A stretch of DNA of 64,000 bases, taken from Escherichia coli (lineage in GTDB: Bacteria; Pseudomonadota; Gammaproteobacteria; Enterobacterales; Enterobacteriaceae). Position 1 is the stretch's first letter. Each line of letters begins with the position of its first letter. This document shows, in pieces, positions 19,501-22,500 of the stretch. The stretch lies in assembly GCF_017348835.2 (NCBI RefSeq), contig NZ_CP071375.1; one strand, given 5' to 3'. The position numbers were made by a program.

Positions 19501-22500
19501 TTACGGTGTATTACCTCCGCTTTGTAAAGACCATTGATGCTCTCAGCCATCGCGTTGTCATACGAGTCGCCAGTACTCCCTGTTGATGCCAGTAATCCGG
19601 CTTCCTTAAGCCGCTGCGTGTAGGCCAGCGATACATACTGAGAACCTTTATCACTGTGATGGATTGTGCCGGACGGCCGACGGGCCCACAACGCCTGCTC
19701 CAGTGCATCCAGCACGAATGTTGTTTCCATGGATGATGAGACCTGCCATCCCACGATGTATCCGGCGAACACATCAATGATGAACGCCACATAAACGAAG
19801 CCCTGCCATGTGCTTACCCAGGTAAAATCAGCCACCCACAACTGGTCTGGACGTTCTGCCACGAACTGACGGTTTACGCGGTCGCATGCGGCAACGGCTT
19901 TCCGGCTGACGGTAGTGCGGACCTTTTTACCCCGGAGAACACCGGCAAGTCCCATAACTGCCATGAGACGTGCCACAGTGCATCTGGCCACTCTGATACC
20001 TTCCCGTAACAACTGACGCCAGACTTTACGCACACCGTATACCTGGTGATTTTCATCGTATACGCGCTGTATCTCTTTCTTCAGCCAGTCATCGTGCTGC
20101 GCACGGGCACTGCGTTTATCCGGATGATGTCGCTGTTGCTGACAATGGTAATACGTTGACGGGGCAATATGCAGTTCGCTGCATACCGGTCCGACCCCGT
20201 ACTGCTCACGCAGCTTATCCAGCAGTGGCATCATTTTTTCCAGAGGCGGTCGAACTCCGCCTTCGCAAAATAAGCGGAAGCCTGGCGAAGGATATCGTTA
20301 CTGCGGCGCAGTTCACGATTTTCACGTTCCAGCTCTTTCAGACGCTGACGTTCAGCGGTGGTGAGTCCACCATCACCACTCCCGGTATCCCGCTCATGCT
20401 GGCGAACCCAGACACGCAGAGTCTCCGGCGTACAGCCAATCTTTGGGGCAATGGAACAAATTGCCGCCCACTGTGAGTCATATTCATCCTGACTTTCCAG
20501 AACCATACGAATCGCCCGCTGACGGACTTCGGGGGAAAAACGAGTATTTTTAGTCATCCTGTTTACCTCTTTCTCAGGGAGTTTAGTCTCCAGGATTTCC
20601 GGGGCGGTTCACTTCGAAGTATTCTTCGTAAGCCTTTTCCATGATTGTGTCGAAATCCATATCACTCACCTGAGTTTCTTTCCAGCCAGCGACGGGCACC
20701 ATTTTCGGTTTTAAACGTTTTGCTTTTGGTATACGTCATCGCGGTGAATGTACCGTCCTGGTTGGGAAACACGCCGTACACCAGAGATTCGTTGTTGCCA
20801 AGATCGATAGTATCCATGTTGACCTCATTTCCCCTTAACGCCGGGTAGCGGAACAAAAACCTGCTGCATAGTTATTAAAGTTGAACCCTGCCGTCATGTT
20901 CATACGCCTCGGGCTGGCTACTTACCCCCTGACCACTGCTTGGTAACTCGAAGTATTGCCCGGCGTTCTGTGGGGCGGGGTGGGTGGTTGGTGTATGTAA
21001 TCTACAATTAAAAACTGTTTTGTGTCAACAGTTTTTAATTGTTGTTTTGGGCAAAAAAATCCCTCGAAAGAGGGAGTATGAAAATTGTTCAACTCAGATA
21101 GAGAAGGGAAATTGTCGCCGAGAATGTGTCACGCTTACAATCTCAATGCTTGAAGCAGCTACTCTGTACAGGATTATGTAGTTAGGGTGGGTCACGATCT
21201 CTCTCAATCCAGAAACCCGTTCGCTTGGTGGATATAAGTACGGATGCTCAGATAGAGGTAATACCGATGTTTCAATGCGTATTTTTAGTCTACGTGCTGC
21301 CGGTGGGTTCTCCTTGGCGATGTAAGTTATGATCTGGCGCAAATCATCGCGAGCAGACGGTAGCCATAAAATGGGTAACATTACTCGCTCTTGTTAGTTA
21401 CAGCAATTTGAGCAATAAGATTTTCCATTTCAGCCATTACCTCGTCATGTGGAATTGCGGGGCGAGTGTCTGCAAGGCTTGACGTTACTTTAGTGCGCAA
21501 CCATTCGTTGTAACTGTTTTCTTGTTCGGTAGTTTCGAATTCTGAAACTATCGGAGAAAGGGCTGTACCCATGGCATAACTCCTCTTCTTGTACTGTGGT
21601 CACGCCCGGCGGCTTTTTTGTGCCGCCAGCCACCTAGCAATGGTTTCTTCCATTGATTTTTTCTTGTCTTTGATTTCTTGAAGCATTTTTTCTTGGTCTT
21701 CCTCAGGAAACGCACTAAAAGCTTGGAGCAGTTCGCGTTGGCGAGGACCAATTTTCATCGTGTCAGGGGTGAAAATTGGCTCACACTCTTCAGGAGGCAA
21801 TAAAAACCAATGCAATGGATGCCCTGAAACCTCAACCAGTTTATCCAAACTTGAGGCTTTAGGTGTAGCCTTACCGCTGACCCATTGTTGAACAGTTTGT
21901 TGTGTCACACCAATTCTACGGGCAAGCTCAGCCTGGCTCCATCCAGTTTCCTGAAGAAGCTTGCTGATTCTGTACATAGATACTTCTAGGGCGCTCATCA
22001 TTATTCAATTTTACAGGTAAATACTGTTAAAAGCATCACAATAAAAAACTGTTGATTGCATACAGTTTTTTATTGTAGTCTTTGCTTATAGTTTTTAGAG
22101 GAGGGCAAAATGCTAGATAGCACTCGCGAAAAAATTAGGCAGAAATACACTCAGGCTGAAATAGGTCGTTATATGGGGGTCGCTCAACAGACTGTTTGGC
22201 AATGGTTTAGCTTTGGCGTTCCCCCAAAGCAGGTAATTCCGTTATGCCAACTAATGAAGTGGGAAGTTACCCCGCATGAAATCCGCCCAGATATTTATCC
22301 TAACCCAACCGACGGTTTACCTGTTGGATGTAAGGTTAACACATCAAATGCGCCGGAGTTGATTCATGAAAATCAAGCATGAACACATCCGCATGGCGAT
22401 GAATGCCTGGGCGCATCCGGACGGCGAAAAAGTACCGGCTGCGAAAATTACCAAAGCGTATTTCGAGCTGGGAATGACGTTCCCGGAACTGTATGACGAC

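Follow-up and report, generated by a model that had tools for sequence, protein, structure and literature searches.

What are the two long palindromes that flank the immunity region of this Escherichia coli prophage, and which part of them would a regulator read? The original prediction, made on the whole 64,000-nucleotide stretch (here called the window), compared them to the right and left operator regions (OR and OL) of lambdoid phages. Each of the two elements overlaps an early promoter within an immunity region of lambdoid type, and comparison of related sequences makes it highly probable that they are its right and left operators, composed of 15-bp units, three in OR and two in OL. Because each palindrome resolves into two ordinary 15-bp sites placed on early promoters, the locus would carry a standard phage on/off switch and not a new DNA element.

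The locus is 99.4-99.8% identical to the Sakai prophage Sp4 (Sp4 / CP-933M type, lambda-like). The flanking genes are those originally described, namely a 133-aa repressor, a cro-like gene and a toxin-antitoxin pair, and are arranged as follows.

21600-22001, minus strand: repressor, 133 aa, homologue of Sakai ECs_1069, with an XRE helix-turn-helix (HTH) whose recognition helix reads TQQTVQQW, and with a helical C-terminal domain like that of PaaR2.
21381-21572, minus strand: PaaA-type antitoxin, co-oriented with the repressor gene and directly downstream of it.
21094-21381, minus strand: ParE-type toxin, in the same operon as the repressor and PaaA.
20662-20820, minus strand: DUF1391 gene, the first gene downstream of PL.
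22110-22382, plus strand: YdaS-type Cro analogue (ECs_1070 in Sakai), 90 aa, recognition helix AQQTVWQW.
22366-22791, plus strand: YdaT (CII analogue; PMC9986795), with a perfect site TTGATTCATGAAAATCAA at 22359-22376, at the ydaS/ydaT junction.

PF21217, PF05016, PF15943 and PF06254 all match in the locus, where repressor-PaaA-ParE is divergent from ydaS-ydaT, and PaaA2 and ParE2 were recovered among solved structures for the antitoxin/toxin pair. A Pfam search of the repressor returned HTH domains only and no self-cleaving peptidase domain, and its structure model contains two C-terminal helices.

The palindromes, first delimited as 35 bp (22040-22074) and 31 bp (21008-21038), are real and slightly longer, at 39 bp each. 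The OR palindrome (22038-22076) has perfect 15-nt arms (22038-22052 and 22062-22076) with 9 nt between them, and the OL palindrome (21004-21042) has arms ACAATTAAAAACTGTT and AACAGTTTTTAATTGT with 7 nt between; the two match at 83% over 41 nt. A motif scan for further copies, using AAAAACTGT-N9-ACAGTTTTT with at most three mismatches, gave exactly two matches in the 64-kb window, the palindromes themselves, where 0.04 were expected, and 0 of 100 shuffles reached two. The lone 9-mer half-site was not enriched in the window (21 matches with at most one mismatch, 16.7 expected). The 108-bp region between the repressor and cro-type genes is present in 508 of 5426 complete E. coli genomes, and since it occurs once in each, twice at most, it is not a generic repeat, a concern raised together with the original prediction.

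The predicted binding unit, the one conserved across genera, is the 15-bp pseudo-palindrome ACAR-N7-YTGT, and neither the half-site AAAAACTGT(T) nor the long palindrome proposed earlier takes that place. Three units lie in OR and two in OL, scored here with a weight matrix trained on non-E. coli loci only.

22062-22076: OR1-like, cro-nearest operator ACAGTTTTTTATTGT, in the PR spacer with its centre at about -19; 20.7 bits.
22038-22052: OR2-like, middle operator ACAATAAAAAACTGT, centre at about -43 of PR and about -44 of PRM; 20.8 bits.
22013-22027: OR3-like, repressor-proximal operator ACAGGTAAATACTGT, in the PRM spacer with its centre at about -19; 19.6 bits.
21004-21018: OL operator ACAATTAAAAACTGT, in the PL spacer with its centre at about -19; 19.8 bits.
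21028-21042: OL operator ACAGTTTTTAATTGT, upstream of the PL -35 with its centre at about -43; 19.7 bits.

Across the 64-kb window these five sites score 19.6-20.8 bits and the next best 11.0; in the shuffle control the fifth-best site never exceeded 11.2 bits. The plain pattern ACAR-N7-YTGT occurs 11 times in the window against 4.05 expected, with five of the occurrences within 1.1 kb. Among 52 symmetrised sites, A1, C2 and A3 are present in 100%, position 4 takes either A or G, and the A/T-rich centre varies. Neighbouring units are 24-25 bp apart from centre to centre, and each long palindrome consists of two units at 24 bp; in OR, 22038-22052 is the exact reverse complement of 22062-22076. 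The extra half-site TACTGTT noted at 22022 is present, but it is the right end of the complete third site at 22013-22027. A fourth operator was considered in the outer right half-site ATAGTTTTT (22088-22096) and the direct repeat TTGCATACAGTTTTT / TTGCTTATAGTTTTT, and was rejected because this stretch varies among close variants and is missing in other genera.

The last T of each site is also the first base of a promoter hexamer, and the predicted promoters and the operon terminator are placed as follows.

22052-22081, plus strand: predicted PR, -35 TTGATT (22052-22057), 18-nt spacer, -10 TAGTCT (22076-22081), start near 22088.
22008-22013, minus strand: predicted PRM -10, TAAAAT, 6 nt before the repressor ATG (22001), with the start predicted at 22001.
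20999-21028, minus strand: predicted PL, -35 TTGACA (21028 to 21023), 18 nt, -10 TAGATT (21004 to 20999), start near 20992.
21053-21075, minus strand: TCCCTCTTTCGAGGGA and a T7 run, the intrinsic terminator that closes the repressor-PaaA-ParE operon and sets it apart from OL/PL.

In a consensus scan PL, which lies over the OL pair, matched at 10 of 12 positions, and of the 30 distinct OL sequences having this arrangement, 28 keep both of its hexamers unchanged. The promoter scanner called neither PR nor PRM, both of which match the consensus weakly. The predicted PR is in register with the PL consensus match, its -35 reads TTGACC in the compared loci L004 and L006, and RATCA is kept in the E. 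coli variants. For PRM, CTGTAAAAT followed by 6 nt and ATG is conserved in all lineages; a -10 only 6 nt before the start codon implies a leaderless transcript, and by analogy with prophage CP-933P the repressor mRNA is probably leaderless. The terminator is G+C-rich and conserved with compensatory loop changes.

The sequences, uniqueness, geometry and conservation of the sites are direct observations, and conservation is what separates the 15-bp unit from the long palindrome. The layout of three plus two sites recurs at the same offsets (about -75, -51 and -26 from the repressor ATG, and a pair at OL) in prophages of Salmonella, Klebsiella michiganensis, Pluralibacter and Morganella and in the metagenome contig L012. 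The repressors of these loci, at 42-80% identity, all carry the helix QQT(V/I)QQW, and the same layout is found in six lineages with that helix. The -51 offset of 22062-22076 holds in the six lineages, the -75 offset of 22038-22052 is conserved, and the -26 offset of 22013-22027 is conserved in all lineages. In the other genera the inner bases differ, and in some loci the long palindrome is lost too. Among 42 E. coli-type loci, which comprise 20 distinct sequences, only a single central base of the 15-mers varies; it lies in 22013-22027, with 22062-22076 and 22038-22052 unchanged in all variants. In the OL region, sites and promoter hexamers are conserved, 21004-21018 included, while the flanks vary, and paired OL sites also occur in L004, L006, L008 and L009.

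The motif follows the recognition helix of the repressor across genera. As a negative control, loci with related N-terminal domains that have AQ in place of QQ carry no ACA...TGT sites between the repressor and cro genes. A further code, in which the choice of Q or K/R at helix residue 39 would determine position 4 of the operator, was also tried. It fits two subfamilies (the L011 type and the L002 type, ACAC) and fails in L010 and L059; because two subfamilies contradict it, this rule is not claimed.

Could the long palindrome itself be the unit, with a dimer or tetramer reading AAAAACTGT half-sites across a 9-bp centre, at LexA-like spacing plus one base? Its appeal lies in the OR arms, perfect over 15 nt, in the near-perfect OL arms, in the uniqueness of the pattern in the window, and in the Salmonella OR pair, which is also nearly an inverted repeat. 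The related loci nevertheless make it improbable. The A-run and the long palindrome are lineage-specific, being lost in Klebsiella L006, whose sites are ACAAGATACTCTTGT and ACAGTTATTTCTTGT, and in the E. coli variant L053, whose OL has different inner bases. The N7 within units is constant in all loci, whereas units are separated by gaps of 8, 9 or 10 bp. Among near-identical E. coli-type prophages, five of the nine gap bases are hypervariable, with only the part that belongs to the -35 hexamer kept. For the third OR site there is no counterpart on the far side of such a gap that has a matching A-run, and the outermost half-sites (22013-22016, 22073-22076, 21004-21007 and 21039-21042) would be left unpaired, whereas the 15-bp parse pairs all of them. 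The CTGT-N9-ACAG core, originally likened to a LexA box, is merely the gap between two sites, and it holds the -35 of PR (TTGATT) or PL (TTGACA).

An action of the palindromes through structure, either as a DNA cruciform or as an RNA hairpin or terminator in crossing transcripts (for example from PRE), is still less probable. Both single strands do fold at -13.4 kcal/mol (z about -6), and a scanner flagged 21004-21042 as terminator-like on the plus strand. The stems, however, are almost all A/T (3 of 16 pairs are G-C), none of the transcripts predicted from PR, PRM and PL begins within a palindrome, and the operon already has its G+C-rich terminator at 21053-21075. In Klebsiella L006 the folding drops to -6.1 kcal/mol (z -2.5) and the pairing is lost, with the 15-bp sites retained. 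An Rfam search at the palindromes gave no family match.

Binding by a host factor such as LexA, which would tie the prophage to the SOS response, is the least credible reading: CTGT and ACAG tetramers are opposed as in SOS boxes, and a repressor with no self-cleaving peptidase would have to be induced from elsewhere, but the spacing is N9 or N10 and not N8, the partner is ACAA in other lineages, and across genera the motif goes with the recognition helix of the repressor. We regard the LexA-box resemblance as coincidental. A search of the window for CTGT-N8-ACAG found a well-formed box just upstream of the host sulA and one other exact match at 30731-30746.

With operators of 15 bp as the preferred unit, the closest likeness for their recognition is phage 434. 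The best solved-structure sequence match of the repressor HTH is the 434 repressor (E = 3e-5). TQQTVQQ of the repressor aligns to TQQSIEQ of 434, with Gln at the positions of 434 Gln28, 29 and 33. The repressor family keeps Q34, Q35, Q38 and W40 without exception, the subfamily of the window also has Q39, and QQ is retained in all nine Cro analogues examined. A fold search of the repressor returned a generic XRE domain only and did not single out 434 (TM 0.79, rank 11). The annotated 434 operators, read from the record, are ACAAACTTTCTTGT, ACAATGTATCTTGT and ACAGTTTTTCTTGT. Like the sites of the window, they have outer ACAA/ACAG...TTGT/CTGT around an A/T-rich, uncontacted centre, and 434 OR3 ACAGTTTTTCTTGT differs from 22062-22076 by essentially one central base. 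In both phages the divergent repressor and cro genes have three OR sites between them, with the OR3-like site in the PRM spacer abutting the -10.

The differences from 434 are also clear. The sites of the window are 15 bp (N7) and those of 434 14 bp (ACAA-N6-TTGT), so the dimer geometry must differ, and the spacing is 24-25 bp against 22-23 in 434. PR is displaced by one site, with its -35 between the two cro-proximal sites, and OL has two sites whereas 434, lambda and CP-933P have three each. The repressor ends in a short helical C-terminal domain and not in a RecA-cleavable LexA-like peptidase, its mRNA is probably leaderless, and the Cro analogue is a YdaS-family protein.

For the remainder of the switch, the model is CP-933P (Sakai Sp12), studied by Jurenas et al. 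(2021; PMC8630535) and Prolic-Kalinsek et al. (2023; PMC9986795). In that prophage PaaR2 and YdaS both protect the corresponding intergenic region in footprints and act as repressors of a PL-like promoter that lies downstream of parE2, PaaR2 octamerises, and 5' RACE showed a leaderless paaR2 transcript; Sp4 / CP-933M is mentioned in the same study without analysis (PMC8630535). The two loci share ParE, PaaA and the repressor on one strand with YdaS and YdaT on the other, an intergenic OR, a PL-type promoter bearing operators just past parE, and the geometry of repressor -10, 6 nt and ATG. YdaT is about 90% identical and has the perfect TTGATT-N6-AATCAA site. The repressor of the window shares the C-terminal half of PaaR2 (42% identity over 98 aa, E = 4e-21, strongest across the final ~50 residues), whereas the N-terminal DNA-binding domain of PaaR2 could not be aligned with it. 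CP-933P has GTTTAGT-type repeats in a 97-bp region in place of ACAR-N7-YTGT in 108 bp, and the PaaA and ParE of the window are about 70% and 66% identical to their counterparts there. On sequence grounds, the locus is a homologue of the PaaR2 switch with another DNA-binding domain and other operators.

The true CP-933P locus (L094) was reached through the exact PaaA2 sequence and identified by the published EMSA primers FL1 and FL2. Another candidate for it, L002 (P0062), has a 63% identical repressor and near-identical PaaA2, and was rejected because FL1 and FL2 are absent from it; judged by its sequence, L002 is a third immunity type, with ACAC-type sites. Megablast with paaA2-parE2 of L002 gave no route to O157:H7, and a search of the open-access literature under the name 'paaR1' and with the operator sequences found nothing relevant.

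In lambda, CI binds as cooperative pairs, activates PRM from OR2 and forms an octamer loop. The window resembles lambda in the 24-bp distance between neighbouring sites, in the site placed at about -43/-44 of PRM, in operator pairs that occupy two loci roughly 1 kb from each other, and in a repressor whose related family is reported to octamerise. It differs in operator sequence, which is unrelated and 17 bp in lambda, and in the repressor fold beyond the HTH.

From these comparisons we infer how the repressor would bind, in which order the sites would fill, and how activation and looping would arise. Each 15-bp unit would take one dimer of the 133-aa repressor, with the YdaS-type Cro analogue competing for it, and the 434-like recognition helix would read the outer ACA through its first two glutamines. 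Dimers at 22062-22076 and 22038-22052 would occlude PR, and dimers at 21004-21018 and 21028-21042 would occlude PL. From the middle OR site, at about -44 of the predicted leaderless PRM start, the repressor may activate its own promoter in the manner of lambda CI at OR2. The 22013-22027 site falls within PRM and would silence it when repressor is abundant or Cro is bound. The PaaR2-like C-terminal domain may join the OR and OL pairs in a loop of about 1 kb around the repressor-PaaA-ParE operon.

A more specific model is put forward tentatively, as a possibility we rate well below the operator assignment. OR would be a two-fold symmetric three-site switch centred on 22045. The middle site is at about -43/-44 from both starts and the outer sites are at -19, and therefore one dimer could help to repress PR and to activate PRM. 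A PaaR-type octamer would bridge the OR and OL pairs across the ~1 kb loop around the toxin-antitoxin operon, and the repressor would be a 434-like head retuned to 15 bp and fused to a non-cleavable oligomerisation domain.

The analysis predicts exact positions for the operators and promoters in the immunity region of Sp4 / CP-933M-type prophages. About 9% of complete E. coli genomes carry this region, O157:H7 and other EHEC among them. The reach of this region extends to the ParE toxin module and, via PL, to the cell-division inhibitors DicF and DicB. For phage switches in general, a long perfect palindrome can be two adjacent inverted operators, and related sequences tell the two readings apart. 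The PaaR-type switch proves to be modular, with the same C-terminal domain and YdaT/PRE part joined to an unrelated, 434-like DNA-binding head and to different operators, and this modularity would explain how sibling prophages in one cell can stay heteroimmune.

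Both palindromes carry the sequence described in the original prediction, with arms slightly longer than stated. The element between the repressor and Cro-type genes (OR) consists of the arms ACAATAAAAAACTGT (22038-22052) and ACAGTTTTTTATTGT (22062-22076), perfect reverse complements with 9 nt between them. The element left of the ParE gene (OL) lies within 21004-21042, has 7 nt between its arms ACAATTAAAAACTGTT and AACAGTTTTTAATTGT, and matches the OR element at 83% over 41 nt. The features concerned are:

21600-22001, leftward: repressor gene (HTH protein, 133 aa)
22110-22382, rightward: 90-aa gene, 108 bp from the repressor gene
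22013-22027: third OR copy, ACAGGTAAATACTGT
22052-22057 (-35, TTGATT) and 22076-22081 (-10, TAGTCT), 18 nt apart, rightward: predicted early promoter PR
21028 to 20999, minus: predicted leftward early promoter PL (TTGACA-18-TAGATT, consensus scan), spanning the OL pair
21053-21075, minus: G+C-rich terminator closing the repressor-PaaA-ParE operon just ahead of OL
2742-2757: canonical SOS box CTGTATGGATGTACAG just upstream of the host gene sulA (2208-2723, minus); the box served as positive control when LexA boxes were compared

The proposed search for further copies, using AAAAACTGT-N9-ACAGTTTTT with three mismatches allowed, returned exactly these two elements in the window, against 0.04 expected; the single 9-mer half-site showed no enrichment there. 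Of 5426 complete E. coli genomes, 508 have the OR intergenic region, once each and invariably without annotation; it is therefore not a dispersed repeat.

Every arm of both palindromes is itself a 15-bp pseudo-palindrome, ACAR-N7-YTGT, and the "extra half-site" noticed earlier is present as part of the complete third copy. This motif occurs 11 times in the window (4.05 expected). Five matches fall inside 1.1 kb, and the remaining six, which are G+C-rich, could be chance occurrences. Fetched loci encoding homologues of the repressor were compared, from Salmonella (80% identity), Klebsiella michiganensis (68%), Pluralibacter (69%), Morganella (68%) and a metagenome contig (42%), all with the recognition helix [TAS]QQT[VI]QQW. 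Each of the five lineages has three ACAR-N7-YTGT sites, starting about -75, -51 and -26 relative to the repressor ATG, plus a further two past the repressor operon. A weight matrix trained on the non-E. coli sites only gave scores of 19.6-20.8 bits for the five sites in the window, with the next best in 64 kb at 11.0; in 100 shuffles the fifth-best site never exceeded 11.2.

Could the long palindrome itself be the functional unit? This is improbable given how conservation is distributed. Among 42 E. coli-type loci with 20 distinct OR sequences, both 15-mers of the long palindrome showed zero variation and the third site varied at one central base, whereas five of the nine between-arm bases took many states (ATGCA, ATACG, ATTTG, ACACA, ACGCG, GCACG, TCATG and others). 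The sole conserved part of the gap, RATCA, is on the opposite strand the TTGAT of the -35 hexamer. At OL both sites, TTGACA and TAGATT were conserved, the flanks had diverged and the inter-site gap was 9 or 10 bp. The inner seven site bases vary from lineage to lineage, and neither the A-run nor the long palindrome is conserved, being lost, for example, in Klebsiella (ACAAGATACTCTTGT / ACAGTTATTTCTTGT) and in the OL of one E. coli variant (ACAGTTATTTATTGT / ACAGTTTTTACTTGT). The proposed half-site thus fails, since its inner bases and A-run are not conserved and it leaves the outermost half-sites without partners. N7 is constant in every lineage while inter-site gaps run from 8 to 10 bp; because a one-dimer unit cannot tolerate variable spacing, the unit is the 15-mer, and the LexA-like "CTGT-N9-ACAG core", with its five variable gap bases, is the space between units.

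A structural role as a nucleic-acid fold is still less probable. Single-strand folding of both window palindromes gave -13.4 kcal/mol (z about -6), but the stems are nearly all A/T, the predicted transcripts begin outside them, Rfam gave zero family matches there, and the Klebsiella counterpart folds at only -6.1 kcal/mol with its sites still present. Binding by LexA is the least credible reading, as the operator spacing is N9 or N10 and a well-formed CTGT-N8-ACAG box sits immediately upstream of sulA.

At 22053-22061, in the gap separating the two operators, and at its E. coli-type counterparts, 4-5 bases beside the PR -35 take at least 11 states in 20 otherwise near-identical ORs. These are probably unconstrained bases amid constrained blocks, since the flanks of OL show similar divergence; an effect of the palindrome centre on mutation may also lie behind them.

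The 15-bp sites overlap predicted PR, PL and the repressor promoter PRM, and the layout recurs in the five non-E. coli lineages, so the OR/OL interpretation stands. The PR hexamers were placed because OR aligns in register with OL; the -35 reads TTGACC in Salmonella and Klebsiella. In every lineage 6 nt separate CTGTAAAAT on the PRM strand from the repressor ATG, the geometry of paaR2 in prophage CP-933P (GATAAT, 6 nt, ATG), whose mRNA is leaderless by 5' RACE (PMC8630535). If PR starts near 22088, PRM at 22001 and PL near 20992, as predicted, site centres fall at -19/-43, -19/-44 and -19/-43, respectively. Each site's final T doubles as the opening T of a promoter hexamer.

Among solved structures, the closest sequence match to the repressor is the phage 434 repressor DNA-binding domain (E = 3e-5). 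TQQTVQQ of the window repressor aligns with 434 TQQSIEQ, placing Gln at the positions of Gln28, Gln29 and Gln33, the base-contacting residues in 434 repressor crystal structures. Q34, Q35, Q38 and W40 are invariant family-wide, and QQ opens the helix in all nine YdaS-type Cro analogues examined. In the AlphaFold model (pLDDT 80) a disordered linker joins an XRE domain of five helices to two C-terminal helices; fold searching returned generic XRE domains, 434 among them. The annotated 434 operators (ACAAACTTTCTTGT, ACAATGTATCTTGT, ACAGTTTTTCTTGT) are 14 bp long and start 22-23 bp apart, with the outer 4+4 bases conserved and 5+5 contacted (PMC1636474). The window sites have identical ends and are longer by a single central base. 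Phage repressors with a 45-55% identical N-terminal domain and AQ for QQ served as a negative control and had no ACA...TGT sites between repressor and cro genes. A rule by which helix residue 39 (Q versus K/R) sets operator position 4 agrees with two subfamilies but breaks down in two others, and is not claimed.

Jurenas et al. studied paaR2-paaA2-parE2 / ydaS-ydaT of CP-933P (Sakai Sp12) (PMC8630535). The true CP-933P locus was recovered, its 97-bp intergenic region bound exactly by the published primers FL1 and FL2. PaaR2 (123 aa) resembles the window repressor in the C-terminal half only (42% identity over 98 aa, E = 4e-21), with identity peaking in the last ~50 residues; its N-terminal domain and GTTTAGT-type operators differ. 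YdaT is ~90% identical to that of CP-933P; identity is about 70% between PaaA and PaaA2, and about 66% between ParE and ParE2. The high-affinity YdaT site is TTGATT-N6-AATCAA (PMC9986795); a perfect copy at 22359-22376, at the ydaS/ydaT junction, implies a putative PRE-like leftward promoter under YdaT control, as in CP-933P. Since the repressor C-terminal half and YdaT are shared with CP-933P and the N-terminal domain and operators are not, the switch is a mosaic of a CP-933P-like right half and repressor C-terminal domain, a 434-like reading head and its own operators. Octamerisation is reported for PaaR2, and PaaR2 and YdaS repress a PL-type promoter past parE2 (PMC8630535). Given the homologous C-terminal domain, pairs of repressor dimers on OR and on OL could close a ~1 kb loop.

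A third immunity type (L002 2379-2500, also L058-L073 and L083-L087) has a 63-65% identical repressor with helix AQQSVQKW; its sites start ACAC (ACACTTTTTTTATGT at -26), the right halves of the others being weak. It carries a PaaA2 nearly identical to that of CP-933P, so the toxin-antitoxin cassette moves between types. Other, unannotated genes replace PaaA-ParE in the repressor-OL slot of Salmonella (L004 3077-3415), Klebsiella (L006 2984-3747) and Pluralibacter (L008 3550-4008). Like the rexAB position of lambda, the slot behaves as a site for cargo that is expressed in the lysogen.

At 99.4-99.8% identity, the window corresponds to 1.155-1.200 Mb of E. coli O157:H7 Sakai, a stretch that takes in host genes and Sp4, a lambda-like prophage. 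The immunity gene counterparts are ECs_1067 (ParE), ECs_1068 (PaaA), ECs_1069 (repressor), ECs_1070 and ECs_1071 (YdaT). ECs_1069 ("phage repressor protein") differs at one residue and Sp4 OR at one base; Sp4 OL is ACAATAAAAAACTGT-N10-ACAGTTTTTAATTGT. CP-933M is taken here as the counterpart of Sp4 in EDL933, in which case the window carries the CP-933M homologue of the paaR2 system. Such a homologue was noted on CP-933M by Jurenas et al. (PMC8630535).

Two IS629/IS3-family copies (19306-20611 and about 28033-29340), both carrying an ALIL frameshift pseudoknot (20160-20276, 28368-28484), lack counterparts at these Sp4 positions. The first interrupts the PL operon and separates the DUF1391 gene from ydfB, so in this strain the genes downstream of it may no longer be expressed from PL. 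Upstream of dicB, in the leftward operon that would be under PL/OL control, is a DicF antisense RNA gene (18058-18109, minus; Rfam, 77 bits). A sok-type antitoxin RNA (29489-29655, plus; RF01794, 102 bits) points to a type I toxin-antitoxin locus of hok/sok-like type within the prophage.

The window operator set had no match in the searchable literature. Its elements are an ordinary lambdoid operator arrangement of a common E. coli prophage, in an architecture already known from 434, lambda and CP-933P. The useful products are exact candidate sites for experiments and a demonstration that PaaR-type repressors swap DNA-binding heads.
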